Shown: positions 9,812 through 51,059 of the stretch, piece by piece
Layout of the letters: every line of letters begins with the position of its first letter
How positions within the stretch are numbered: position 1 is the first letter of the stretch
From: an uncultured bacterium
Lineage (GTDB): Bacteria > Planctomycetota > Phycisphaerae > UBA1845
Direction of reading: 5' to 3'
NCBI GenBank assembly: GCA_965371245.1
Contig: CBDUXT010000022.1
Span: 620 to 64,619 of the forward strand
DNA length: 64,000 nucleotides
Notes under the pieces: model-generated
What the model saw: only the letters and a program-made list of their open reading frames with translations
Databases searched by the model: none
Told to the model about the DNA's origin: nothing
Position numbers and translations under genes: made by a program

Positions 9812-11743
9812 TTGGGAGCCCAGCGGCTCCGTCCGCGCCTTGAATCGTCGCGTCGGGCCGATTTCGATCTGACGCCAGACCGTTGGCAGCGTTCACAAAA
9901 CAGGCAACCTGTGACCAGACAACCCGACCCACAAGATCGTTCTCGAGCCAAGAGCAACCCGGGTGTGGCACGTCCGGACTCGTTCAGCGAGGACGATCGG
10001 CCATTGGCCGAGATTCGCAAGAACATCCACGACGCCCTGCGAATGGTGTCCATGCATCGGTGGGCGTTCTTCGTTCCCTTCAGCGTCGTCACATGCACGG
10101 CCTTCATCCTTAGCTTGTCCTACCCGAGAACCTACCGCGCGAGCACGACCTTCGAGCGCCGCGATGACCCGGTCATGTTGAGCCTTCAGACGTCGGCGGC
10201 GGCGATGGGGTTCAAACAATTCCGCAGCACCGTCGTCCGTGATCTTCGCTCCGCCGCGTATATGAGCGAAGTGGTCCAGGAGCTCGGGCTCCCCGGCGTG
10301 GACGAACGCACTGAAGATGGCGCGTTGACGGAGGCTGCCGATCATCGACGAACGGCGCTCGCCCGTTCATTGGCCGGGACGCTCAGCGTTCGAGTCACCT
10401 CGCCGAGCGTTCAGTTGGACATAATCACCATCACCTATACGGGTCCGGACCCGGCCATCGGTCGCAAGCTCGTGGACCAGGCCAAGCGAACCTACATCCG
10501 GCGCACCATGAAATGGATCCACGACGACTTCCTCACGCGCCAACGGGAGTATTTCCAGCAGGAGGCGACGGAGGCCCAGCGAGAGCTCCTCGTAGCACGA
10601 AGGCAGGAGCAGGACCTTCGATTGGAGAATCCGCTCGTCGATCCGGCCAACCCCGCGACCATATCGCTCAAGCTCGCACAGCTCGACATGGAGCGCCGTC
10701 GGCTGTTGCTTCGCCAGCGGGAATATCGGGCAGATCGTTCCGCGATAGAGCAGATGCTCGCTGCGGTCGAAACAGCAACGGTGGACAGACTCGGCGTCTT
10801 GGACAAGGAAAAGCCCATCACCACACAGACCCCGCTTAGCGCGGAGGCGCGGGCACTCACCGCCCGCATACGCACGCTCGATAACCAGGTGGCGAACCTA
10901 CGGACCACCCGCGGGATGACCGGCCAGCATCCCGAGGTGGTATCTATCCTGAAAGAGCGTGCCGCCCTGACCCGCCGGCTTGAGCAGCCGCGCGACCGCG
11001 ACCAAGAGGCGATTTTCGTTGCCTTGCCGCCTGCCGTCGCCACAACAACACCGATCGACTTGGCGGCCAGACGCGAACGGGCGAGACTGCTCACTCAACT
11101 TGCCGCGCAGGAAGACAAACTCAAGGAAATCGACATCAGCCTGCAAACGAACCAGCTCAACAGTGAGGAGCATGCCCACGCCAAGGATCTCTTTGCCCAG
11201 AAACAAACCGAATTCGCCGAGCTGCTCGGCGACATCACACAGGCCGGGCAACGACAGCGAAAGGCACTGGCAACCGTTGCCTCGATCCAACCCGCGATCA
11301 CGGCGTTCGAGCGAGGGCGCCTGTTGCTCTTTTCCGAAGGATCCCCAGCGCGAGGCGGAAGCCGTCCCATTTCGCCGAAGGCCTCAACGGTTGTGCTCCT
11401 GGCGCTCTTTTCCGGACTCGCCACGGGGATCGTCTTCGTGGTGCTTGCCGAGGTCTTCGATCACGTCTTTCGGACGTCGAGCCAGGTTGCGCGGGGCCTG
11501 GGCCTGCCCCTGCTCGAATCCATTGACGAGATCGTGACAGCACACGACCGGCGCCGCCGGCTCCTGCAGCGAGCCGTCCTGACACCGATCGTCGTGACCT
11601 GCTTTGTCACGCTGACCGTCTTGACGGGGGCGATGGCCTATCTGAGCATCGAGCGACCGGCCACCTTTGAGAAGCTCCGCAAGTTCCCCGAGGCGGCGAT
11701 CCACCTCTTCGCCGGTGAGCCGCCCTCATCAAAGAACTCCTAA
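9812..11743 (+). CDS. polysaccharide chain-length determinant (Wzz/GumC-like), no kinase domain
   Basis: N-terminal TM after HRWAFFVPFSVV, a long coiled-coil periplasmic region and C-terminal TM segments. TTG start preceded by AGGAG 9 nt upstream. Confidence 0.7.
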   Translation: MGAQRLRPRLESSRRADFDLTPDRWQRSQNRQPVTRQPDPQDRSRAKSNPGVARPDSFSEDDRPLAEIRKNIHDALRMVSMHRWAFFVPFSVVTCTAFILSLSYPRTYRASTTFERRDDPVMLSLQTSAAAMGFKQFRSTVVRDLRSAAYMSEVVQELGLPGVDERTEDGALTEAADHRRTALARSLAGTLSVRVTSPSVQLDIITITYTGPDPAIGRKLVDQAKRTYIRRTMKWIHDDFLTRQREYFQQEATEAQRELLVARRQEQDLRLENPLVDPANPATISLKLAQLDMERRRLLLRQREYRADRSAIEQMLAAVETATVDRLGVLDKEKPITTQTPLSAEARALTARIRTLDNQVANLRTTRGMTGQHPEVVSILKERAALTRRLEQPRDRDQEAIFVALPPAVATTTPIDLAARRERARLLTQLAAQEDKLKEIDISLQTNQLNSEEHAHAKDLFAQKQTEFAELLGDITQAGQRQRKALATVASIQPAITAFERGRLLLFSEGSPARGGSRPISPKASTVVLLALFSGLATGIVFVVLAEVFDHVFRTSSQVARGLGLPLLESIDEIVTAHDRRRRLLQRAVLTPIVVTCFVTLTVLTGAMAYLSIERPATFEKLRKFPEAAIHLFAGEPPSSKNS

Positions 11744-12070: not shown

Positions 12071-15000
12071 ATGCACCTAAAGCGAATCAGCATCTGCGGC
12101 TTCAAGAGTTTCTGCGACCGCGCCGACTTCGACTTCGGACCGGGCGTGACCTGCATCGTAGGCCCCAACGGCTGCGGAAAGAGCAACCTCGTCGATGCCT
12201 TCAAATGGGTCTTGGGTGAACAATCCGCCCGCTCCCTCCGCGGTCGGCAGATGGCCGACATGATCTTCAACGGCTCGAGCACGCGCCGGAGCAGCAGCGT
12301 GGCCCAGGTCGATCTGGTCTTCGACAACACCGATCGCTCCTTGGACTACGACGCCGACGACGTCGTCGTCTCGCGCAAGCTCTACCGCTCCGGCGACAGC
12401 GAGTACCTGCTCAACCAGGCGCCGGCCCGTCTGAAGGACGTTCGCGATCTGTTCATGGACACCGGCGTGGGCGTCGATGCCTACTCGGTCGTCGAGCAGG
12501 GCCGGGTCGATAGCTTGTTGCAAAGCAGCCCCACCGAACGGCGCATCATTTTCGAAGAGGCGGCCGGGATCAGTAAGTACAAGGCCCGGCGGCGCGAGGC
12601 CGAGCGCAAGCTCGAACGCACCCAACAAAACCTGTTGCGCATCGAGGACATCATTCAGGAACTCGAGAAGCGCCTCCGCAGTGTGAAACTTCAGGCCGGA
12701 AAGGCCCGTAGCTACAAACAGCTTGAAGATCGCCTCAACGAGCTTCGGTCCAGCTACGCCCTCGCGGAGTTCCACCGCTTCACGGACGAAATCGCTCGTT
12801 TGACAACCGAGGCGCACGGGCAGACCGATTGTGTCACCAGCCTCAAGACCGAAATCGACCGTCACGGCGCGCAGGAAGCGGAAATGGTCACTCGCCTCGA
12901 TCGCCTGGCGGAGGACATTAACGCGGCCGACAGCAGCTTCGTCCAGACCAAGTCCGAACTGCTCGCCCGAGAGGAACGGATCGAGACCGCCCGCGGGCGA
13001 GCCGAAGAACAACGGGTGCTCCTCGAACGGGTCCGCGAACGCCATGCGGCCGACTCGTCCCGCATCGAGGAGTGCCGGCGCGAGCTAGCGTCGCTGCAGG
13101 AGTCGGCCGCCACCTTGGAGACGGAATCCGCCGAGCTGCGCGCATGCGTCGAGCAGATCACCGAACGCGACCGCGCGTTGGCACGAGAGCTCACCCAGTC
13201 CCAGGCCGTCCTGGAAGACGAAAAGGCCGGCATCATCGAGCTTCTCCGCCGCAGCGCCCGGCTGCACAACGAGATTATCCGCCTCAACACCCACCGCGAA
13301 TCGCTGGTCGGCCAGAAGGGCCGTCTCTCGGAGCGCGACGCCATGCTGACCTCGGAACTCGGCACGACGCTGGAGCAACGGGTCCAGCTCGATCGCCGGA
13401 TCCATGAGCTGGACAGTCTCATCGCGGAGGAGACGGAGAAGCTCGAGGAGAAGAAGACGGAGGCCGCACGCGTGGACACCCTCCGCCAGCGGCTCATCGA
13501 CGGGATCGCCGAGGCCAAGCAGCAGCGCAGCGCGATGGCGTCGCGCCGTGAACTGCTCGAAGACCTGCAGCAGCGTATGGAGGGCGTTGGCGTCGCGGCC
13601 CGCCGCATCCTGGACCGCAAGCGATCCGAAGAGCCGTCTGCCGCGCTGCAACAAATCGAAGGCCTGGTGGCCGATGTCTTCGAGACGGACGTCGCCCAGG
13701 CCGCCGTGATCGAGGCCGCCTTGGGCGAAGCAGCGAAGGCCTTGGTCGTCACGCACGGCGGCGCCCTTTTGACCGACGAGGAGCTCTTCGGCGATCTTCC
13801 CGGTCGCCTGGACATGCTCTGTCTCGATCGGCTCCCTCCTGTCATCAACGAACACGACTTTCGGGAAGCACCGGGTTTCGCCGCCCGCGCGATCGACATG
13901 GTTCGCTACGACGACCGATTCGACCACCTCGCCAGACATTTGCTCGGTAAGACCGTCGTCGTCGAAACATTGGCAGTGGCCATGGCGATGGCGGACCACG
14001 ACGTCGCCGGCCACCGATTCGTGACGCTCGCCGGCGAAGTGGTTGAGTCGGACGGCTCGGTTCGAATCGGCCCGCCATCGACCGGCGTCGGGCTGATCTC
14101 TCGTCGTAGCGAGCTGCGTGAGATCGCGACCCAGGCGACCACGCTGGAAACGCGCATCAGCACGTTGCACGATCAGCTCAACCGCACGCAGGCGGAAGCG
14201 GGGCATCTTGACGGCGTGCAACAAGAGCTTCGAACGGCCATCTACGAGTCCAACACCGCCAGGGTTGAGGCGAACGCCGCGCTGCAAAACATCACCGAGA
14301 CGATCAACCGGCTCACGCGGGAGCAGCCACTGATCGCCCAGGAGGTTGCGCTTCTCGAACAAGAGATCGGCGAGGTCCACGAGCGGAGCGCCAGCGAGGG
14401 GAAAACGCTCGCCCAGACCGAGGCGGAGAACACGCAAAGAGAGTCACTGGTCGCCCAACATCAGGCGAGAATCGACGACGTCGTCGCGAGCCGACAAGCC
14501 GTGCAGGAAGAACTGACGCAGGCCAAGGTCAGCGCGGGACAACTGGCCGAAAAACGATCCGCGGCGATAGAGAAGGCGACGGCGACTCAGCGAGTGACCC
14601 ACGAGCTTGAGAACACTCTGGCGAATGCCGAACGCGACGCCGAGGAGTGCGAAAGCCGTATTGCCGACGCAGCCAAAGCGATCGCGCAAGGGCAAGAGGA
14701 TCTCGCGTCCCTCCGAGAACGAATCGACCACCAGGAAGCCAGATGCACCGAGCTTCGGCGCGGTCGAGAAGGGCTCCGTAGCGAGCAGGAAATGCTGGCC
14801 GCCACGATCAAGAGCGCGCGCCAACGCCTGGAAGAAGCGGAGAGACGGGTCCACGAACATGAAATGGCGCTCGCGCAGACGAACGTGCGCCGCGACGACC
14901 TGGTCTCGCGCATCGCCGATGAACTCGACATCAACCTGATCGAGCGGCACGAAGCGTACCAGCACGAAGAGCAGGATTGGGCCGAGGTCGAAACGGAAAT

Positions 15001-24329: not shown

Positions 24330-27227
24330 TCAGATCGTCGCCGGCTCTTGGGCGCGTTTCTTACTCGCGAGCGCTTTGAGGATTTTCTCAGGCGTGATGG
24401 GTAGATCCTTGATCCAAACGCCGGTGGCGTTGGCGATCGCGTGGGCTACGGCGCCGAGCACCGGCAGCGTGCTCCCTTCACCGATTTCCTTGGCGCCGAA
24501 TGGACCCCGGGGCTCGTACGAATCAACCAGCCCGCTGAAAATCTCCGGTGCATCCTTGATCGTCATCATCAGGTAGCCGTGCAGGTTCGGGTTGAGGATG
24601 CGACCCTGATCGTCAAACTGCACCTCCTCAAGCAAGGTTTCGCTGGCCCCCATGACGACGGCGCCCTCGACCTGACCGTGGACCGAGAGCGGGTTGATGG
24701 GCGTGCCGCAGTCGTGATAGTCGGTGAACTTGTCGATCTTGACCTTGCCGGTCTCGAGATCGACGGAAACCTCGCAAACGGCGCTGCCAAACGAGTAGGC
24801 CGGACTGGTGCCAACGGTCGCCCCTTTGTAATTGCCGCCAAGTCCGTCGGGCGGTTTGTAGGCGCCGGTGCCGACCAGCGGACCGTGATCGTTGAAATAC
24901 TTCCGCGCCACCTCCTCCCAGGCCACGCCGTCGGATTCGACGCCGCGCGCGAACATCCGCCCGTTGTGCGCCTCGACCAATGATTCGTCGCACCCGAGCA
25001 AGCGCGCGGCGTAGGGTTTCATTTTCTCGACCACCGCAGCGCCCGCCCGCGACACGGCATGGCCGGCCATCAAGGTCACCCGCGACGAATAAGCACCGAG
25101 ATCAAGCGGTGAAATATCAGTGTCTTCGCTGCGGATGCGCAATCGCGCCGCCGGAATGCCGAGCGACTCGGCACACATCTGCGTCAAGACCGTGTCACTT
25201 CCCTGGCCGATTTCAGCGGCGCCGATCATCAAGACAGCCGCCATGCCGTCCTCGCTGATTTTCACGATCGCGTTGGCGTGCGGGAAGATCGACTTCTTCT
25301 GGAATGACTCGCGACCCTTTTCGTGCGAAAGCTGAACCTGGCCGCGGTAGATGCAATAGCCCGCGCCGGAGACAAACCCGCCACACCCGATGCCGATGCC
25401 CTTGCCCTTCGGTAGTTTGTTGTACTTCTGATCCCAGTTGGCTTTGGCGGACACCGCCTCCAGCGTGCGCAAAAACTCGCAGCTCCCGACGGCCATCTCA
25501 TTGACGGTCATCGAGTTCGGTGTCATGGCGTTGCGCCGGCGAATCTCCACCGGGTCAATGCCCAGGTCGTCCGCGACCATGTTGAGCAAACATTCGAACG
25601 CGAACCGCGGCTGCGGAACGCCGTGGCCTCGCATCGCGCCGGCCGCCGGCTTGTTGGTCATCATGCGGTAGCCGTCGTACTTGTACGCCGGAAAGCGATA
25701 GAGCGTCGGCAGGACGCTCCCGGCGTAATACGCAGTGGCCACGCCAAAGGAAGAGTAGGCGCCGCCATCCAGATAGATTTCGCTGGCGAACGAGCGGATC
25801 GTTCCGTCGCGATCGACCCCGATCTTGAACTTCATGTGCTGCTTGTGCCGGCCGCGCCCGTGGTGAAACATCTCCTCACGCGAGTAGACCATCTTGACGG
25901 GTCGCCCGAGCTTCCTGCTGAATAGCGCCGCGCACAGATCAAGCGGTGTGGTTTCCGCCTTGCCGCCAAAGCCGCCGCCGACGGTGGGACGGATCACGCG
26001 AATCTTGCCGAGCGGGATGTGCAGCACGTGGGCCATCATGTACTGGACGTAGTGCGGGACCTGCGTCGAGGTGTGGAGCACCAGCGTGCCGTCGTGGTCC
26101 CAGGTGGCAATCGATGCGTGCGGCTCCAGCGGCGACTGGTAGATGTGGTTGCCGGTGAATGTCTCTTCGCGCACGTGAAACGAGTCCGCGAAACCTTGCT
26201 CGACGTCGCCGAAGCTCTGCTCGACATGGGTGTTGATGTTGCGTTCGTAGCGATCGTGAATCCGCGGCGCGCCCTCTTCGCCCGCCAGATAGGGATCGAG
26301 CACGCACGGCAGCGCTTCGTATTCCACTTCGATGAGTTCCAGCGCCGCCTCGGCGGTCCGCTCATCGATCGCGGCCACGGCGGCCACCTCATCCCCGACG
26401 TGGCGGACCTTGTCTCGGGCGAGCACGTACTCGTCATACCGCGCGGGCGACACGCCGTACTGCGTATCGGGTACGTCCTTGCCGGTGATGACGGCCAGCA
26501 CGCCCGGAAGGACTTCCGCCTTCGAGGTGTCGATGCGTTTGATACGCCCGTGCGCGATGGGCGATCCCAGGATCTTGCCGTACACCATGTTGGAAAGTGC
26601 GATGTCGTCCGTGTAGAGCGCCCGCCCCGTGACCTTGTCAGCGGCGTCCACGCGCGGCATGGGCACACCGACGCTGGTGGCGTCTCGCGAGCTTGGTCGG
26701 TAGTCGGATTGTCCGTCTCGTCTTTCACCAAGCGAATGGTTTTTCTTGGCGCAGGTGCCGTTGTCGCGGTAGTTGTCGCACCGCGACACGGCGCGCATGA
26801 TTCCGGAGTACCCGGTGCAACGACAGAGGTTGCCGGCCAGGGCGTCTTTGATTTCTTCCGCCCCGGGATGGGGACGCTGATCGAGCAACGCCGTCGCGGA
26901 GAGCACCATGCCGGGCGTGCAATACCCGCACTGGATGCCCCCTTCGTTGACAAACGATTTTTGAAGCGGCGTTAGCTGACCATCAACCGCGACGCCTTCG
27001 ATGGTCGTGATTTTTCGATCGGCGACCTCAGCGGCGAGCATCAGGCAGGCGTTCATCGGGCAACCGTCGATGAGCACGGTGCAAACGCCGCAGTCTCCAA
27101 CGCCGCACCCCTTCTTGGTTCCGGTGAGACGCAGCTTGTCGCGCAGTACATCGACCAGCGTGTCGTAGGGCTCGACCACGACGGCACGCTCCTGCCCGTT
27201 AACCCAGAAGGTGGCCACACTGCTCAT
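24330..27227 (-). CDS. xanthine dehydrogenase/aldehyde oxidoreductase-family protein, fused [2Fe-2S] plus molybdopterin-binding subunit
   Basis: N-terminal GCGVGDCGVCTV, CGYCTPGM and NLCRCTGY (two 2Fe-2S sites), followed by about 800 aa of a/b-hammerhead plus Mo-pterin domains (GGGFGGK, the AEIGQGS-type segment). Confidence 0.9.
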   Translation of the reverse strand: MSSVATFWVNGQERAVVVEPYDTLVDVLRDKLRLTGTKKGCGVGDCGVCTVLIDGCPMNACLMLAAEVADRKITTIEGVAVDGQLTPLQKSFVNEGGIQCGYCTPGMVLSATALLDQRPHPGAEEIKDALAGNLCRCTGYSGIMRAVSRCDNYRDNGTCAKKNHSLGERRDGQSDYRPSSRDATSVGVPMPRVDAADKVTGRALYTDDIALSNMVYGKILGSPIAHGRIKRIDTSKAEVLPGVLAVITGKDVPDTQYGVSPARYDEYVLARDKVRHVGDEVAAVAAIDERTAEAALELIEVEYEALPCVLDPYLAGEEGAPRIHDRYERNINTHVEQSFGDVEQGFADSFHVREETFTGNHIYQSPLEPHASIATWDHDGTLVLHTSTQVPHYVQYMMAHVLHIPLGKIRVIRPTVGGGFGGKAETTPLDLCAALFSRKLGRPVKMVYSREEMFHHGRGRHKQHMKFKIGVDRDGTIRSFASEIYLDGGAYSSFGVATAYYAGSVLPTLYRFPAYKYDGYRMMTNKPAAGAMRGHGVPQPRFAFECLLNMVADDLGIDPVEIRRRNAMTPNSMTVNEMAVGSCEFLRTLEAVSAKANWDQKYNKLPKGKGIGIGCGGFVSGAGYCIYRGQVQLSHEKGRESFQKKSIFPHANAIVKISEDGMAAVLMIGAAEIGQGSDTVLTQMCAESLGIPAARLRIRSEDTDISPLDLGAYSSRVTLMAGHAVSRAGAAVVEKMKPYAARLLGCDESLVEAHNGRMFARGVESDGVAWEEVARKYFNDHGPLVGTGAYKPPDGLGGNYKGATVGTSPAYSFGSAVCEVSVDLETGKVKIDKFTDYHDCGTPINPLSVHGQVEGAVVMGASETLLEEVQFDDQGRILNPNLHGYLMMTIKDAPEIFSGLVDSYEPRGPFGAKEIGEGSTLPVLGAVAHAIANATGVWIKDLPITPEKILKALASKKRAQEPATI

Positions 27228-42210: not shown

Positions 42211-43365
42211 GTGACACAAGACGAAATCATTCAGCACTGTCGAAACCTGCTGGAGTTGCTGCCCGGTCAAGCGCTGGCCCAGGCGCGACGGCAGCATGGC
42301 GATATCGGCGGGTTCGGTGTTTTTCCGGTCTATGCTCCGGTCGAAATCATACACGCGGCCGGCCTCATGCCGGTCGGGCTGTTCGGCGCGGGTGATAAGG
42401 TCGAGCTGTCGCACGCGGAGTCTCGGTTTCAGTCCTTCATCTGTTCGATCGCCAAGAGCACGCTCGAGCTGTTCCTCAGCGGCGAGATGAAGGATTTCCA
42501 AGGCACCGTGTTCAGTTCAATCTGTGACGTCGCTCGCAATCTAGCGAGTCTGGTGAAACGCAACGTCCCGGAACTCTACATCGAGTACCTGCACATGCCC
42601 CAGAATATGTACAGCGCCCAATCGCTCAACTTCACTCGCGCGGAGTTCGAACGTTTTCGCGCGAACCTCTCGAGACATCTCGGGCGACCCATCACCGAAG
42701 ACGCGATCCGCAAGAGCTTGGCGCTCTACAACGAAGTGCGCGATCTGACCCGAAGGCTCTACGCTCATCGCAAGAGTCATCCCACGTCGATCGCGGCGGC
42801 CGACCTTTACGCGGTGGTTCAGGCCGGCACGCGCATGATGCCCGAAGATTACGCGCCGATGCTGCGCGAGTTCTGCGAGCACGCGCAGGCCGCCAAAGTC
42901 AAACCGCGAGACGGTGTCCGCGTCGTGGTCGAGGGCGCCTTCTGCGAACAGCCGCCCATCGGCCTGATCGATGTCATCGAGGCGAGCGGCTGTATCGTGC
43001 AGGACGACGACATCGCCATCGGCTGGCGACTCTTCGATCAAGACGTGGAATGCAACGGCGATCCGCTCGCGGCGCTGTCCAAGGCCTACCTCGCCGGCAG
43101 CACGTACACGTCGGTCCGTCACGACGTCAACAAGCCGCGCAGCGACCAACTGATCGACAGGATGAAGCGCGCGGGCGCCGAGGCTGTTCTTTTTACCCCG
43201 GCCAAGTTCTGCGAGCCCGCCCTGCTCGACTATGTCCTGTTTCGGCAGAAACTGGAAGCGGCGGACGTGCCGCATCTGAAGATCGAGTTTGAAGAGAAAA
43301 TGTGGACGTTCGAGACGACCCGAACGGAAGTCGAGACCTTCGCGGAGTCCATGCTCTTTGATTGA
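42211..43365 (+). CDS. bcrC: class I benzoyl-CoA reductase subunit, BcrC/BadD/BzdN-like
   Basis: HAD/BCR family. GGFGVFPVYAPVEIIHAAGLMPVGLFGAG is the typical BcrC N-terminus. 384 aa, GTG start after GGAGG. Confidence 0.85.
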   Translation: MTQDEIIQHCRNLLELLPGQALAQARRQHGDIGGFGVFPVYAPVEIIHAAGLMPVGLFGAGDKVELSHAESRFQSFICSIAKSTLELFLSGEMKDFQGTVFSSICDVARNLASLVKRNVPELYIEYLHMPQNMYSAQSLNFTRAEFERFRANLSRHLGRPITEDAIRKSLALYNEVRDLTRRLYAHRKSHPTSIAAADLYAVVQAGTRMMPEDYAPMLREFCEHAQAAKVKPRDGVRVVVEGAFCEQPPIGLIDVIEASGCIVQDDDIAIGWRLFDQDVECNGDPLAALSKAYLAGSTYTSVRHDVNKPRSDQLIDRMKRAGAEAVLFTPAKFCEPALLDYVLFRQKLEAADVPHLKIEFEEKMWTFETTRTEVETFAESMLFD

Positions 43366-43439
43366 GTGCGTGTAGCGGCGCCGCGACAGGAACCAAGAAA
43401 CCCGCTAGGACACCGGAACTCCGGTCGGAGCGAAACCTG

Positions 43440-44723
43440 ATGAGAACAGACGTTGCTGAAACGAAGGACTATCGCGGCAATGTGCATGAGCTGTCGCGCA
43501 ACATCATGACCGATTGGATGCAGGAACTGAAGGAGGCCACCGACAGCCCCGCGCCGTCCGCGTACATGATGATCAGCGGCAACTGCGTGGAAATCCTGCG
43601 ATGCTTCGACATCCTGCCGGTTTTTCCCGAGGTCAACGCCTTGCAACTGGCCATCCGGAAAAAATCGCTGCCCTACATCATCAAGAGCGAGGAAGTGGGG
43701 TACGCCTCTGACAACTGCGCGTACGTCAAGGCCGACATCGGATTCACGATGTGCGGCGGCGTCGGCGAGGGCGGCACGGTTCCCAAGCCTTCTTTCATCG
43801 TATGCAACTTCGTCGGCTGCAACGTCTACATCAAGTGGTTCGAACACTGCGCCCAGATGATGAACGTGCCGATGATCATGCTCGACGTGCCGTTTCTGCG
43901 CGAGGACGCGCCGAGCCAAGCAGACGTAGCCTACGTCATGTGTCAACTGCATGAACTCATCGAACGGTGCGAGGCGCTCACCGGCAAGAAGTTCGACATG
44001 GATCGGCTTCGAGAAATCCTGAAATACTCCGCCCGCGCCGAAGCCGGTTGGAGCCGCGCGAAAGAACTCTGCAAACATCGCCCGGCGCCGTTTGACGCCT
44101 ATTTCGACAGCATCAACATGATGGGGCCGATCAACGCCCTGCGCGGCACGAAGGAGGCGGCCGACTTCTTCGATGCCACGGTGGCGGAATACGAAAACAT
44201 GGTGGCCGAGGGCATCGGCGTGCTGGATGACGAACGCTTCCGCATCGTTGTGGAAGGCCCTCCGCCATATCCCTACTACCGCAACTTCCGCAATCTGTTC
44301 GAGGCCTGGGGTGCGGTGGCCGTTCAAAGCACCTACTCCACCGTTGGCGGCACCTGGGAGTTCGGATTCCGCCACGATCCGGATCGCCCCTTGGAGAGCA
44401 TCGCCGAGCAGATGATCCTGCACAACCTCTGCAATCGCTCGATGATCGAGCGCTACAAACAGATTCGAACGTACGTCGAAGACTGGCACGCAGACGCACT
44501 GGTGATCCACAGCATCAAGAGCTGTCGGCTGTTTTCCGCCGGGCAGGGCGACATGCGCGAGTATTTCACCAAGGATCTCGGCGTACCGACGTTGATGGTC
44601 GAGTCTGATCTCGAGGATCCGCGATACTATGCGGAGGCGCAGATGAAAAACCGCATCGACGCGTTCTTCGAGTCGCTGCAATACAAGCGCATGCGCCAAG
44701 GAGAAGAGGCGGCAACCGCCTGA
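43440..44723 (+). CDS. bcrB: class I benzoyl-CoA reductase subunit, BcrB/BadE/BzdO-like
   Basis: DNCAYVKADIG, GCNVYIKWFEH, FDMDRLREILKYSARAE, FRIVVEGPPPYP, GFRHDPDRPLESIAEQ, SIKSCRLFSAGQ and DLEDPRYY closely resemble my recollection of Thauera BcrB. An alternative TTG start at 43362 overlaps the bcrC stop. Confidence 0.88.
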   Translation: MRTDVAETKDYRGNVHELSRNIMTDWMQELKEATDSPAPSAYMMISGNCVEILRCFDILPVFPEVNALQLAIRKKSLPYIIKSEEVGYASDNCAYVKADIGFTMCGGVGEGGTVPKPSFIVCNFVGCNVYIKWFEHCAQMMNVPMIMLDVPFLREDAPSQADVAYVMCQLHELIERCEALTGKKFDMDRLREILKYSARAEAGWSRAKELCKHRPAPFDAYFDSINMMGPINALRGTKEAADFFDATVAEYENMVAEGIGVLDDERFRIVVEGPPPYPYYRNFRNLFEAWGAVAVQSTYSTVGGTWEFGFRHDPDRPLESIAEQMILHNLCNRSMIERYKQIRTYVEDWHADALVIHSIKSCRLFSAGQGDMREYFTKDLGVPTLMVESDLEDPRYYAEAQMKNRIDAFFESLQYKRMRQGEEAATA

Positions 44724-44755
44724 ACAACGCGACAAGACCGAAAGGGTTGGAATCC

Positions 44756-45592
44756 ATGGAATATGCCGTCGGAATCGACGTCGGGAGCACGCAAACAAAG
44801 GCGATCGCGATCGACACGTCACGCGCCATCGTGGCGCGGGCGCTGATCGACACGGGCGCCAACGTCAAACGTGCCGGACAGCGCGCCCTCGACCACCTCG
44901 TGGAACACGAGAACATCGCACGCGCCGACATAAAATTTGTCGTGGGGACCGGCTACGGTCGGTACAAGATCGAGGCCGGCGATACGCAGGTGACCGAGAT
45001 ATCATGCCACGCCCGCGGTGCCCAACTTCTGTTTCCCAGCACGCGAACCGTGATTGACATGGGTGGACAGGACACCAAGGCGATCAAGATCGGCCCGGAG
45101 GGCGACGTACTGGACTTCTGCATGAACGACAAGTGCGCCGCGGGAACCGGACGTTTCTTGGCCGGTGCCGCCGAGGTGCTCGGACTCACCCTCGACGAAC
45201 TCGGCGATATTTCATTGAAAGGCACCAAGCCGATTCGCCTGACCAGCGTATGCACGGTGTTCGTCGAATCCGACATTCTGAGTCATCTGGCGCAGAAAAA
45301 GAAGGTCGAGGACATCCTCGCCGGCGTTCACGAAGCGATTGCATCGCGCACCGTTGGTCTCGTTCGACGTGTCGGCATCGAACCGGAGGTCTCCTTCACC
45401 GGCGGCGTGGCACGCAACGTCGGCATGGTACGGGCACTGGAAGCCAAGCTTGGGAAACCGCTGAACATCAGCCCCGAGGCGCACTTCTGCGGTGCGCTGG
45501 GCGCCGCGCTGTTCGCGATGGATCACGTGTTCGCGAATCGAAAGCCGGACGCCGGCGTGAGCGCCGAACCGGCCGTATGGGTGGATGAGTAG
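44756..45592 (+). CDS. benzoyl-CoA reductase ATPase subunit (BcrD/BadG/BzdP-like)
   Basis: GIDVGSTQTKAIAID, DMGGQDTKAI, KCAAGTGRFL and SVCTVFVESDI. Alternative TTG start at 44747. Confidence 0.85.
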   Translation: MEYAVGIDVGSTQTKAIAIDTSRAIVARALIDTGANVKRAGQRALDHLVEHENIARADIKFVVGTGYGRYKIEAGDTQVTEISCHARGAQLLFPSTRTVIDMGGQDTKAIKIGPEGDVLDFCMNDKCAAGTGRFLAGAAEVLGLTLDELGDISLKGTKPIRLTSVCTVFVESDILSHLAQKKKVEDILAGVHEAIASRTVGLVRRVGIEPEVSFTGGVARNVGMVRALEAKLGKPLNISPEAHFCGALGAALFAMDHVFANRKPDAGVSAEPAVWVDE

Positions 45593-45699
45593 CGACGCAA
45601 CACGCCGGCGAATCAACTTGCCGGATACGGCGGGAATCAAAAAAATGGCGCGGCGCGACTGACGGCCACGCGGTAAGAAGAACCATCAAGGAGTGAAAC

Positions 45700-46557
45700 G
45701 TGGCGATCATTGCAGGTGTGGATCTAGGCGCCGGAGCGACCAAGACGGTATTGGTCGATGATACGGCCTGCGTGCTCGGTCGGGGCATCGCGCGCACCCA
45801 GGCGGACTTCGACGCCGTGGCGCAGCGCTCGATCGATATGGCCTGCCGCGAGGCGGACATCACACCCGAGGACATCGACTACATCGCCTCGACCGGCCTC
45901 GGTCGCTACAGTCTGAGCGCGCGCGACATACAGATCACCGACTTGACATCCGGGGCCCGCGGCGCGCATGCGCTGTTTCCCGACGCCAACTTCGTGCTGG
46001 ACATGGGCGCCCAATGCACCCGGGCCGTCGCCCTGCGCGACGGCGGCAAGGTCAAGTCGTTTAGAACAAACGAAAAATGTGCGGCGGGAAGCGGCGGGTT
46101 CCTCGAACGTATCTGCCGCTACCTCGAAGTGGACGTCAACGACATCGGGGCGCTATCGCTTCAGGGCAAAGACCCCCAGCCCATCAGCAGCGTGTGCGCG
46201 GTGCTCGCCGAATCGGAAATCATCAACCACGTCTCCGAGGGAAAGAGCGTGGCCGACATCGTCCGCGGCGCGCACGAATCGTTGGCCGGCCGAGCGCTGA
46301 GTCAGTTGAGAATGGTCGGCTTTGAGACATCCGTCATCTTCATCGGCGGCGTGGTGCGACAGGAAGGGATGGTCCACGCATGCCGCGAAATCTTTAACGG
46401 CGACGTGTTGATCCCCCGGAACCCGGCGCACGTTGTCGCCTACGGTGCCGCCATCCTGGGGCTGTCTCGCTTCGCGAAGCGCTCCGCTCCCGCCGGTGTT
46501 CTGCGAAACGAGGTCCGATCAGATGTCGTCGGCTACGCGCGCGAGCCCGGATCCTGA
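45700..46557 (+). CDS. benzoyl-CoA reductase ATPase subunit (BcrA/BadF/BzdQ-like, short form)
   Basis: GVDLGAGATKTVLVD, DMGAQCTRAV, KCAAGSGGFLE and SVCAVLAESEI. 285 aa, GTG start. Confidence 0.85.
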   Translation: MAIIAGVDLGAGATKTVLVDDTACVLGRGIARTQADFDAVAQRSIDMACREADITPEDIDYIASTGLGRYSLSARDIQITDLTSGARGAHALFPDANFVLDMGAQCTRAVALRDGGKVKSFRTNEKCAAGSGGFLERICRYLEVDVNDIGALSLQGKDPQPISSVCAVLAESEIINHVSEGKSVADIVRGAHESLAGRALSQLRMVGFETSVIFIGGVVRQEGMVHACREIFNGDVLIPRNPAHVVAYGAAILGLSRFAKRSAPAGVLRNEVRSDVVGYAREPGS

Positions 46558-47952: not shown

Positions 47953-48966
47953 CTAGTCGATGACCACATCCGGGGCGGTCAGCACCGGGCTCCACTCCCC
48001 GCCACAGCCGTCCTGATTGCCGTTTTCACAAGGATTGAACCACTGATCGTTGTCGAAGTCCTCGAAGAACCAAGCGTCCTGAACGCTGAACGTGAAGGCT
48101 ACCGTGGTTTCACCGGAGTCGGCGCTGAGGATCAGGTTCAGCTCGCCTTCCAGGATGAAAATGTCCTGACTGGCTCCCTGCATGGCGTTGGGGCGATCCC
48201 ATAGGTCCGTGTTCCCGTAGAGCCCGCGCAGGTGTCCTGTTTCCGGGTCAGCGCCGCCGGCACCGTTGATGGTGCCTCGCGCTGCCGCCAGGAAATCCGT
48301 TTGCCACAGCTCCGCCGGTGGCACGAAGCCGAGTTCATTGTTAGCGGCGTCCACGAGCGTGATATCACCCTGGTGATGACCGAGGCTCCCCTCCGCGGGG
48401 AAATCGTCGTCGCTCACGTAGACACGAATGGTCGCGGGGTTTTCGGGGTCGTACAGCGGCATTGTCAGTTCGTGGAAATAGATCTCCGCGTAATAATCAG
48501 GGTACTCACCCGCCGGCAAGTTCAGGTCCAGAAGGGTGATCGCCGTGGTCAGGTCAAGAACCTCGGCGCCGGCCAGCGTGCCGGTATCGGCGATGACATC
48601 CACCAGGTCACCGTCTGCATTCTCGAAGGCAAGCCGTTTGAAGGCGACCTTGTACGCGGAGGGCGTGATATAGCGGATGATCCCGCCGTCCCCGTCGCAG
48701 TCCTGCTCACCCTGATAGATGGGGTCGTCCGTCGCCGGAGGGGACGTCGGGCACAGCTCCTTGGCCAAAGCTCTCCTCGGCTTGGAAGCGACCTCCGGTG
48801 CGAAGAGGGCCTTCAAGGTTACCGTGACCGTACGCGGGGTATTCGGGTCCGTCGCCCCCGTGCCACCGGGACCAAGGGGTACGTCGCAAGCTGTTCCGAT
48901 AACAGAGGACAGCAGCAGGGCCGGGCAAGTGACGACAAGTCTTCGGAAACAGTTTCTGTTGTTCAT
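47953..48966 (-). CDS. hypothetical secreted lipoprotein
   Basis: Signal/lipobox LLLSSVIGTACD and an acidic Asp/Gly-rich mature protein. No recognised domain. Confidence 0.6.
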   Translation of the reverse strand: MNNRNCFRRLVVTCPALLLSSVIGTACDVPLGPGGTGATDPNTPRTVTVTLKALFAPEVASKPRRALAKELCPTSPPATDDPIYQGEQDCDGDGGIIRYITPSAYKVAFKRLAFENADGDLVDVIADTGTLAGAEVLDLTTAITLLDLNLPAGEYPDYYAEIYFHELTMPLYDPENPATIRVYVSDDDFPAEGSLGHHQGDITLVDAANNELGFVPPAELWQTDFLAAARGTINGAGGADPETGHLRGLYGNTDLWDRPNAMQGASQDIFILEGELNLILSADSGETTVAFTFSVQDAWFFEDFDNDQWFNPCENGNQDGCGGEWSPVLTAPDVVID

Positions 48967-49697
48967 GATGTTCTCACCTTCGTGCTGTAACTCCGGTGAT
49001 TACCGGGCGCACAGTTTTGTGGACGTTCAAGACGTGGTCGGCAACGTGGATCAAGGGCAAAGCCCGCCTGCGGACGATCCCGCATCCGGAGACAACACTC
49101 CATCGGATCACCGCGCGTCAGGCTGAACATGATGCCGAGTGATTCTGAAGCAGACGCCGCCTGGCGGCGGCAGATCGCCGGGCGGTCCGGTACGATCTCG
49201 TCTTCCGCGATCGGCTCCGCGGTGATGTTCTCCATGACGGGTGGATGGCCTATGAAGCCGAGGTCCATCTCACCACGAAGCGCCTTCCGCTCAACGCTTT
49301 GCGAAGGCTCGACCGTGTAACGCAGCTCCACCCCGCTGTGCAGTCGGTGAAACCGTCCGAGAAGAGACGGTAGCAGGTAGAACTCCGGCGTCGTGCCCGC
49401 GTCCGCTCGAAACCCGCCGGCGCCTGCGGTCTGATGCTCTGCCACGGATTCGGCCACCCGGTCCACTCTCGCAAGCAAGTCCTGCGCTCTTTGGGTAAGG
49501 GTCCGGCCCGCATCGGATAGGTGAAGTGACTTCCCGATCTGCTCGAAGATCGACACCCCAAGGTCATGCTCGCGCCGCTGAACCTGGCGCGAGACGGCCG
49601 GCCGCGACAGGTAGACCTCCTCAGCGGCCGGCGTGTAGCTGAGGTGTTTTCCGACGGCCAGAAATGTTCTGAGATGTACCGGGCCCAGTGTGCTCAT
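48963..49697 (-). CDS. LysR family transcriptional regulator (C-terminus apparently truncated or divergent)
   Basis: HTH LRTFLAVGKHLSYTPAAEEVYLSRPAVSRQVQRREHDLGVSIFEQIGKSLHLSDAG. The substrate-binding domain is recognisable to about residue 190. The last ~50 residues are atypical, and the ORF ends by overlapping the next gene's start. Confidence 0.75.
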   Translation of the reverse strand: MSTLGPVHLRTFLAVGKHLSYTPAAEEVYLSRPAVSRQVQRREHDLGVSIFEQIGKSLHLSDAGRTLTQRAQDLLARVDRVAESVAEHQTAGAGGFRADAGTTPEFYLLPSLLGRFHRLHSGVELRYTVEPSQSVERKALRGEMDLGFIGHPPVMENITAEPIAEDEIVPDRPAICRRQAASASESLGIMFSLTRGDPMECCLRMRDRPQAGFALDPRCRPRLERPQNCAPGNHRSYSTKVRTS

Positions 49698-49831
49698 GGG
49701 CGAACCAGAAACAACAAACATGGTAACGATTACGATTATTCATTTGTATTCCAGTTCCTCAGGGCGTAATCTGTCAGTATCGCAGCGTAGCCGTCAAATA
49801 GGTTGAATCGCTCGGGCGAGAGGCACGGATC

Positions 49832-50566
49832 ATGCTGGCCACGGAGCAGTTACGAAACGCGGTGAATCACGCCTACTCCGCTGCGGCAGAGCGTCCACGC
49901 GGGGAGCACGCGTTTCCAGTCGGTCGCCGATTCGCCGAGAGCATTGGCTATAGCGTTGAGCTGCTCGAGACGATTCCGCCGGTGGCGTATGAAGCGTTCG
50001 CCGGCGTTTCCTGCGTGTCCGTGTTTGCCGACACTCCGGCAGGGGCTCGTGTTCTCGACCTGGGATGTGGGGCGGGGCTCGATTCGTTAATCGCCGCACG
50101 ACGGGTCGGAGTCGCAGGGCGCGTCATCGGCGTCGATTTCAGCGATGCGATGCTTGCGCGGGCGCGGGAAGCGGCTGTGGAAGCTGGGGCCACGAACATC
50201 GAGTTCCGCCGCGCGGACGCGGAGCGCCTGCCGTTTGCGGACGACTCGTTTGATCTCGCGCTGGTGAACGGGCTCTTCAACCTCAATCCCGCCCGAGAAG
50301 GGATCGTCGCTCAGCTCGCCAGAGTCGTATGCGCCGGCGGTTCGGTTTGGGCGGCGGAGTTGATCCTCAAGGCTCCACTTCCCGAAGCGGTGACCGGCAA
50401 TGAAGCCAATTGGTTTGCATGAATCGCCGGCGCGAAGGAAGGCGGCGCCTTCCTCCAGGAGTTCACCGACGCCGGGTTTCGCACGGCCAACATCCTGCGG
50501 ACCACAAGAAACGCGCGAACGAAGAACGATTGCGTGCTCGCAGCCGAGATCGTGGCCGTGAGATAA
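49832..50566 (+). CDS. ArsM/UbiE-like SAM-dependent methyltransferase with in-frame TGA (50420-50422) at the conserved Cys position: selenocysteine candidate or nonsense pseudogene
   Basis: SAM motif VLDLGCGAGLD. The ORF-track product stops at ...EANWFA-TGA, but the same frame continues as IAGAKEGGAFLQEFTDAGFRTANIL...VR-TAA (50564-50566). This aligns with the ArsM ...LYAGC(I/V)AGA...L.EAGF motif, with TGA in place of the Cys codon. Confidence 0.6.
50436..50454 (+). promoter_or_regulatory. SECIS-like hairpin 13 nt downstream of the in-frame TGA
   Basis: AGGAAGGC-GGC-GCCTTCCT: 8-bp stem with a G-rich apical loop, or a 7-bp stem with loop CGGCG. Confidence 0.35.
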
Positions 50567-51059
50567 CAAACCGGCAGCCGGCTCCAGAGGCTGTTGCGCT
50601 CGAGACTTCGCCGGCAGCCTGGGCAACGCCCGGCTTCGCTCCGGCCGCCGCCAATCGTGGAGGCCGGCCGAGGATACCCGGGTTAGGGCACGACCCTCTT
50701 GAAACTGCCTCGCTTTGGGCAAAGAATGTCTGCGGATGTTCGCGCGGACGCTAACGCCTCAGACCATAAGGGAATCACCACGTACGATACCTTCACGAAG
50801 CCGTCAACGCTCACTTCCACCGTCAACCGATTCCCTCACTCCTCCCTGCCGAGCCGTGAACGGTTACCATATCACGAACGCGGATTCGGCGTGTAACTTG
50901 GCGTAGCCGAAAGTACCCCGGGGCCAGTCCGGGCAACACATTCGCGACACACATTCGCGGTGCGCCGCGCACCTCGCCGACTCGACGCAGGTGTGAGGAC
51001 ACGCGGCTCGAACGTAACATGGAGTCTCGAACGGCCTACACGAGGGGAAGGGCCGGTGC

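Follow-up and report, generated by a model that had tools for sequence, protein, structure and literature searches.

An ArsM-like methyltransferase gene with a predicted in-frame selenocysteine codon in an uncultured Phycisphaerae bacterium

The stretch of DNA analyzed here (64,000 nucleotides, called the window throughout) comes from an uncultured member of the Phycisphaerae (Planctomycetota). Positions 49832 to 50566 of the window very probably make up one gene for a 244-residue selenoprotein, an ArsM-like methyltransferase dependent on S-adenosylmethionine (SAM), in which the apparent stop codon TGA at 50420-50422 is predicted, almost certainly, to encode selenocysteine (Sec). This reading, already put forward in a preliminary description of the DNA, is supported by a Sec/Cys pair among related proteins, by the coding signature of the sequence that follows the TGA and by a conserved hairpin just downstream. 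What raises the case above chance is that the TGA, the extension and the hairpin recur together in 73 other genomes.

The annotated open reading frame (ORF; 49832..50422, + strand) encodes 196 residues before the TGA. The same frame then continues for exactly 47 further codons (IAGAKEGGAFLQEFTDAGFRTANILRTTRNARTKNDCVLAAEIVAVR) to the TAA at 50564-50566, and the coordinates originally given, for both stops and for the hairpin, were exact. The read-through product matches the Pfam families Methyltransf_31, 25 and 11 (class I SAM-dependent methyltransferases), and its SAM-binding motif I contains seven residues (L75, D76, L77, G78, C79, G80 and G82) that are invariant in our family alignment A1. 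Its best matches in the Protein Data Bank (PDB) are arsenite methyltransferases, with E=4e-17 for 5evj from a single sequence, CmArsM (4fr0/4kw7) among the others, and 1e-20 in a profile search. The TGA codon aligns with the Cys of the 'ECLAGA' motif of Chlamydomonas ArsM (PDB 5evj), which is the Cys224-type position of CmArsM. When a structure model of a homologue that has Cys at this position (P0002) was submitted to Foldseek, the top matches were 5evj, 4fs8 and 8xt7, with TM-scores of 0.46-0.58; this model is of moderate quality and was used solely for overall similarity to the ArsM fold. The proposal that the extension continues the ArsM fold holds up well, as it aligns both with the C-terminal part of ArsM-type enzymes and with full-length Cys homologues.

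To place the gene among its relatives, we searched 5.8 billion proteins for homologues and inspected the 120 closest. More than 100 of these are 196-206 amino acids long, cover 78-80% of the query and end in ...(N/D)WFA, their last residue being the one that precedes the TGA. Scanning GTDB with a single genome for each species gave 80 related loci. In 73 of them, a TGA stands at exactly the same codon and is followed by the conserved sequence (I/V/L)AGAKEGGAFL..RNARTKN..VLAAEV.A.K, and the other TGA-containing orthologues that the preliminary description proposed to look for were found. These 73 loci span more than 10 phyla, including Chloroflexota, Acidobacteriota, Planctomycetota, Methylomirabilota, Rokubacteria, Nitrospirota, Deltaproteobacteria, Armatimonadota and Dormibacterota; together with the window gene they form the set of 74 Sec-type genes used below. 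A close orthologue (L060) belongs to a cultured species, Paludibaculum fermentans. The seven most distant loci (L073, L075-L080; about 40% identity) have Cys (TGC or TGT) at this codon, within the motif 'DWFRCIGGAL', and Cys also occupies the position in two full-length homologues of 246 amino acids, P0002 and P0003, in the motif 'WFACI(S/T)GAKE(D/G)GAFL'. With the Cys of 5evj, these sequences bear out the earlier placement of the TGA on a conserved Cys column. A putative Sec codon in the gene and Cys in distant relatives is the classic Sec/Cys pair.

The sequence beyond the TGA evolves like a protein-coding one. In 64 of the 74 Sec-type genes, exactly 47 codons separate the TGA from the next stop, and mean column entropies at codon positions 1, 2 and 3 of the extension are 0.70, 0.61 and 1.57, respectively, compared to 1.11, 1.02 and 1.63 in the 47 codons before the TGA and 1.94, 1.96 and 1.94 after the true stop. 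Because variation is biased towards third codon positions, the extension is, as judged from these alignments, under strong purifying selection at the protein level, stronger than in the 47 codons that precede the TGA and ending at a real stop.

The hairpin (AGGAAGGC-GGC-GCCTTCCT) starts 13 nt past the TGA, has an 8-bp stem and a predicted energy of -12.3 kcal/mol (21-nt segment), and its apical loop begins 21 nt after the UGA. It was initially described as being placed like a bacterial SECIS (a Sec insertion sequence), and further analysis strengthened this assignment. The published criteria for bacterial SECIS (bSECIS) elements are a 3-9-nt loop, a stem of 4 bp or more, a G in the first two loop positions, a distance of 16-37 nt from the UGA and a minimum free energy (MFE) of at most -7.5 kcal/mol (PMC13188914). 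The window hairpin lies within every one of these limits (8-bp stem, GGC loop, 21 nt, -12.3 kcal/mol), as do those of 68 of the 74 genes, the remaining six failing solely on the energy of the minimal hairpin. We aligned the TGA and the next 45 nt of all 74 genes (alignment A2; helix columns 17-24 with 28-35). The 8-bp helix is paired in 91.4% of cells across the 74 sequences, vs. 48-64% once the 3' arm is displaced by 1-3 nt. Compensatory changes on both sides occur in five of the eight pairs, none of 500 shuffles reached the observed covariation score, and RNAalifold independently predicts a 6-bp core of the same hairpin. Some of the compensation is synonymous (Lys AAG>AAA with Leu CTN>TTA in L003, L012 and L025), and in L020 it changes the protein (Gly>Ser with Phe>Leu). 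The first base of the loop, a G (column 25; window position 50444), is invariant though its codon specifies Gly, Val or Asp; since the base is fixed while the encoded residue varies, it points to a probable constraint at the RNA level. In the Cys clade, the hairpin was found in none of the seven loci, and the KEGGAFL motif is also absent. An extended lower stem, suggested by MFE pairing of 50427-50434 with 50467-50475, was rejected, being only 62% paired across the family and showing no covariation.

A few sequences close to the Sec-type genes have another codon in place of the TGA. Close homologues inside the Sec clade have TGT (L084:720-722 and L085:1265-1267) or CGA (L086:757-759) at the Sec codon with the SECIS hairpin still present, and look like recent single-base conversions with a relic SECIS. 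Among the database proteins, the DNA at the Sec codon is TGT for P0003 and CGA for P0019, whose record has Arg at this position; P0003, P0006 and P0019 all keep the hairpin.

Several results weigh against a Sec-containing, ArsM-like enzyme, and we list them together. Hairpins of this kind arise by chance, as 58 of the 1758 TGA trinucleotides in the window (3.3%) are followed by a bSECIS-passing hairpin at the same offset, and 6 of the 1758 (0.3%) by one that is equally stable. Rfam returned no SECIS or other relevant family, either for the whole window at the gathering threshold or for 50380-50520 at E-values up to 10. No match to SelA, SelB or SelD was found in the 64-kb window by tblastn with the E. 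coli proteins, and a search with ARAGORN gave no tRNA-Sec in either the window or the related loci, the only tRNA of the window being tRNA-His. On the functional side, no consistent operon partner was seen among the neighborhoods of related loci, and in the AlphaFold model of P0002 the confidence score (pLDDT) falls under 50 around the Sec loop (residues 179-207) and is low at the C-terminus as well.

How much do these points count? Because a single hairpin is common by chance and the fold of the single sequence is unexceptional (z = -0.57 for the 66 nt around the site), stability alone is no evidence and the SECIS argument rests on conservation. The Rfam result is uninformative, since bacterial SECIS elements are short and diverse. 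As for the machinery, three related loci (L006, L032 and L045) have selA, selB or selD no more than 10 kb away from the methyltransferase gene; as these genes adjoin it, some carriers of the methyltransferase gene are shown to possess the Sec trait. The full Sec machinery has also been described in some Planctomycetes (PMC4807772). In L006, selA (964-2313) lies about 8 kb upstream, and in L032, selB (13668-14717) lies about 3 kb downstream of the methyltransferase gene. In L045, from a metagenome-assembled genome (MAG) of the Nitrospirota, a selD homologue (10805-11729) is directly downstream of it.

By the standard bacterial mechanism, a ribosome arriving at the UGA (50420-50422) would meet an mRNA hairpin that would recruit SelB with Sec-tRNA(Sec); Sec197 would then be inserted and translation would proceed through the 47 remaining codons to the TAA. 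By homology, Sec197 would lie beside SAM at the position of the arsenic-binding Cys224, where its most likely role would be to bind a soft metalloid or chalcogen substrate that receives the methyl group. The features of the gene are collected in Table 1.

Table 1. Positions in the window of the candidate selenoprotein gene and of its main features
Feature	Position	Strand	Remarks
Full candidate selenoprotein coding sequence	49832..50566	+	Translation of 244 residues, Sec at residue 197; ArsM-like class I SAM-dependent methyltransferase
Val59, at the position of arsenic-site Cys72 of CmArsM	50006..50008	+	Profile alignment 'aFaGvsn' vs. 'KFYGCGS'
SAM-binding motif I, VLDLGCGAG	50051..50077	+	Residues 74-82; aligns with motif I of both CmArsM and CrArsM
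Gly147, at the position of arsenic-binding Cys174 of CmArsM	50270..50272	+	VNGIFNLNP vs. ISNCVxNLS; alignments with 5evj and 4fr0/4kw7
In-frame TGA, predicted to be read as Sec (U197)	50420..50422	+	Opens the motif U-I-A-G (UxxG); position of CmArsM Cys224
47-codon segment after the candidate Sec codon, C-terminal part of the methyltransferase	50423..50563	+	IAGAKEGGAFL...RNARTKN..VLAAEI.A.R
Candidate bacterial SECIS-type hairpin	50436..50454	+	5' arm 50436-50443, loop GGC 50444-50446, 3' arm 50447-50454
True stop TAA	50564..50566	+	Sequence conservation of the family ends here

The substrate is less clear than the Sec codon. ArsM enzymes have four conserved cysteines (C44, C72, C174 and C224 in CmArsM), all of which must be present for As(III) to be methylated: the arsenical is bound by C174 and C224, and the first methylation depends on C44 and C72, which give a disulfide cascade, whereas dimethylated trivalent arsenic (DMAs(III)) is bound by C224 alone (PMC6138428). 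The window protein retains just one of the four positions, that of C224, as Sec. Residues 1-60 contain no Cys, and the Gly that replaces Cys174 is, with the neighboring N146, invariant in alignment A1. The losses of Cys72, Cys174 and the N-terminal Cys are common to the Sec clade and its Cys sister clade. With the other arsenic-binding cysteines absent, the label 'arsenite methyltransferase' is doubtful for the window protein, and, lacking equivalents of Cys44, Cys72 and Cys174, it would probably not follow the canonical three-thiol As(III) cycle. A substrate that can be held by a single selenolate would be more plausible, for example DMAs(III) or some species of selenium, sulfur or tellurium. 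We therefore put forward, tentatively, the possibility that the clade with the lone selenolate is a functionally distinct selenoenzyme acting on something other than inorganic As(III), converting DMAs(III) to volatile trimethylarsine or methylating selenium, tellurium or sulfur. The step from DMAs(III) to trimethylarsine is a candidate because it needs only the Cys224-type ligand. It should be noted that the window protein has a Cys61 (50012-50014), two residues past the Cys72 position, within a GVSCVS sequence where most of the family has GVSNVS; this Cys is shared by a subclade made up of the window protein, P0004, P0007, P0008, P0010, P0026 and L020, and could serve as a second ligand or as a resolving residue. 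The conserved His26 is another candidate for a replacement ligand.

The alternative that survives best leaves the Sec codon in place: the protein would be a true ArsM with Sec instead of Cys224, performing the usual As(III) detoxification, the missing ligands coming from glutathione or another thiol. The best structure and sequence matches are to ArsM and AS3MT, PRK11873 is matched at E=1.6e-46, such proteins go by 'arsenite methyltransferase' in the literature, with the motif UxxG, and a minority of the neighboring genes encode ArsR-type regulators or metal efflux pumps. We nevertheless consider this function unlikely. Of four cysteines that are all required for As(III) methylation (PMC6138428), one is left, with Val for C72, Gly for C174 and no Cys at the N-terminus, and surveys call ArsM only when at least three of the four are conserved (PMC5552862). 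Scores against the curated NCBIfam models tell a similar story. The best models, matching residues 5-225, are the ArsM/AhpD selenoprotein (NF041537; 175 bits, cut-off 510) and the double selenoprotein methyltransferase/UXPK-star (NF047649; 174 bits, cut-off 460), followed by the PRK11873 arsenite methyltransferase itself (NF008823; 159 bits, cut-off 263) and the ArsM/DUF2284 selenoprotein (NF041536; 152 bits, cut-off 575), so that every ArsM-type model stays below its cut-off. Nor was an ars operon context found: Acr3, ArsB and ArsC are absent from the top 25 families of the 141 ORFs that flank the methyltransferase gene in the 73 loci.

The other alternatives concern the TGA itself. One is that the codon is read as something other than Sec, as Trp, Cys or Gly through a near-cognate or suppressor tRNA, or in a lineage with reassigned TGA. 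The lack of visible Sec machinery in the window would fit such a scheme, and so would three database records, P0005, P0006 and P0009, in which JGI gene calls give Trp at the TGA. In the case of P0006, the DNA (L087:762-764) is TGA; the record writes W, and the gene is flagged as not translating to the stored protein. TGA terminates 17 of the 35 confident ORFs in the window, where it is the commonest stop, and 20 of the 74 Sec-type genes themselves end in a TGA, beyond which the sequence is unconserved; the genetic code is therefore not reassigned. Relatives have Cys at the aligned position, neither Trp nor Gly, the TGA is accompanied by a conserved hairpin that fits a SelB-type SECIS and is missing from the Cys clade, and selA, selB or selD adjoins the gene in three loci. 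Taken together, these observations make recoding to another amino acid improbable, and Sec the expected residue. A second, C-terminal Sec of the UXPK-star type was considered and rejected, the sequence after the terminal TGA stops in relatives being unconserved, and a scan of the window for TGA read-through candidates gave no other convincing selenoprotein gene.

It is more improbable still that the 196-residue product is the functional protein, the downstream conservation belonging to a separate regulatory RNA or small ORF. Public databases do store the gene as a protein of 196-200 amino acids; the conservation past the TGA is, however, codon-periodic, in the same frame, extends over a fixed 47 codons and breaks off precisely where the next stop stands, the downstream part aligns with the C-terminus of ArsM-type enzymes and of full-length Cys homologues, and no conserved start codon follows the TGA in the family alignment.

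Least credible of all is a pseudogene, in which a Cys methyltransferase would have been interrupted by a sequencing error or by a nonsense mutation that recently turned TGC/TGT into TGA: a single base separates TGA from the TGT of L084/L085 and the CGA of L086, and the adjacent divergent LysR gene looks truncated, but the same TGA in 73 other genomes of many phyla excludes the recent mutation, which the preliminary description had left as an alternative, and a dead gene would not keep the 47 codons after its stop under stronger purifying selection than the 47 before. A contig from another sequencing run (L083), 98.2% identical to window positions 49524-50673, has the TGA and an identical extension, which argues against a sequencing error.

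The neighbors of the methyltransferase gene in the window are a divergent LysR gene and a two-component system. The LysR-type regulator (48963-49721, - strand) matches only residues 10-190 of a 321-amino-acid orthologue, the neighbor of the methyltransferase gene in L018, and no frame resumes the homology after 'AEDEIV'; it has the look of a truncated or degenerate gene. In L018 and L020, the divergent LysR gene beside the methyltransferase is intact. Among the 141 flanking ORFs of the 73 loci, the families encountered include LysR (6), radical SAM (6), phosphonate-binding (5), CDF (4), ArsR-type HTH (3), P-type ATPase (2) and RND (2). Within 6 kb of the methyltransferase gene, a heavy-metal P-type ATPase occurs in 6 loci and CzcA/RND efflux in 7, some directly adjacent; the metal-efflux loci are L008, L042, L062 and L079, with the genes downstream of the methyltransferase, and L003, L009, L013, L018, L034, L062 and L076. 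The neighborhoods thus show a weak link to metal stress and none to canonical arsenic resistance. In the Chloroflexota loci L001, L005, L007, L015, L025, L039 and L069, synteny is specific to the lineage, with radical SAM genes upstream and a Nudix hydrolase gene downstream of the methyltransferase. Elsewhere in the window, two regions (42211-46557, + strand, and 24330-27227, - strand) encode subunits resembling benzoyl-CoA reductase/2-hydroxyacyl-CoA dehydratase (BcrC-like, HgdD-like and two BcrA/D-type ATPases) and a fused molybdoenzyme resembling the alpha and gamma subunits of 4-hydroxybenzoyl-CoA reductase, which suggests anaerobic degradation of aromatic compounds in this Phycisphaerae MAG.

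The gene and hundreds of its orthologues are stored as proteins of 196-200 amino acids that end at the predicted Sec codon, a systematic mis-annotation under such names as 'methyltransferase domain-containing protein', 'SAM-dependent methyltransferase', 'arsenite methyltransferase' and 'UbiE', and the clade is missing from curated selenoprotein models. Once the Sec codon is recognized, the last fifth of the enzyme is recovered, and with it the residue that is likely to be catalytic. Homology-based counts of arsM would take in this clade, which is without the arsenic-binding cysteine set, and the potential for arsenic methylation in soils, sediments and groundwater could be overestimated as a result. 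If the enzyme is truly a methyltransferase with a single selenolate, it would be a useful case of a role for Sec outside redox catalysis.

Selenoproteins of this general kind have been described before. The Global Ocean Sampling (GOS) selenoproteome includes a Sec-containing 'arsenite S-adenosylmethyltransferase (PRK11873)', with 8 Sec sequences and 245 Cys homologues (PMC2398784), and catalogues list a Sec-arsenite methyltransferase with the motif UxxG, citing Fomenko et al. 2007 Science 315:387 (PMC13188914, PMC9312934); the statement in the preliminary description that such proteins had been reported from marine metagenomes was correct. Like this family (PRK11873/NF008823), the window protein is ArsM-like, has its predicted Sec at the Cys224-type position within a UxxG motif (U-I-A-G), is accompanied by a bacterial SECIS-type hairpin just downstream inside the coding sequence, and has Cys homologues. 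It differs from the family, of which WP_011987699.1 is a published example, in its score (159 vs. 263 bits), probably in being without equivalents of Cys44, Cys72 and Cys174, and in being short (244 amino acids) and stand-alone.

With the structurally characterized enzymes CmArsM (4fr0/4fsd), CrArsM (5evj) and human AS3MT (8xt7), the window protein shares the fold, the SAM motifs and the equivalent of Cys224/Cys206, here predicted to be Sec. Canonical ArsM and AS3MT have, in contrast, four cysteines, an extra C-terminal domain and a total length of about 320-390 amino acids, whereas the window protein has Gly at C174, Val at C72 and no N-terminal Cys. The fusion selenoproteins NF041537, NF041536 and NF047649, attributed to Haft & Tolstoy 2025 in PMC13188914, match it in the methyltransferase domain, and the UxxG Sec motif is common to all; unlike the window protein, with its one predicted Sec and no additional domain, they contain two or three Sec residues each and are extended by a second domain or tail. 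Neither the extra Sec-containing domain or tail nor the above-cut-off score that define these multi-Sec fusions is found in the window protein. The hairpin resembles the SECIS of E. coli fdhF and the bSECIS consensus in forming a stem-loop that lies within the ORF, just 3' of the UGA, with a small loop and a leading G; it differs from the E. coli elements in lacking sequence similarity to them and in that the upper hairpin alone is conserved. Globally, the Sec-ArsM kind has been known since 2007-2008, and the window gene is a divergent addition to it rather than a new kind.

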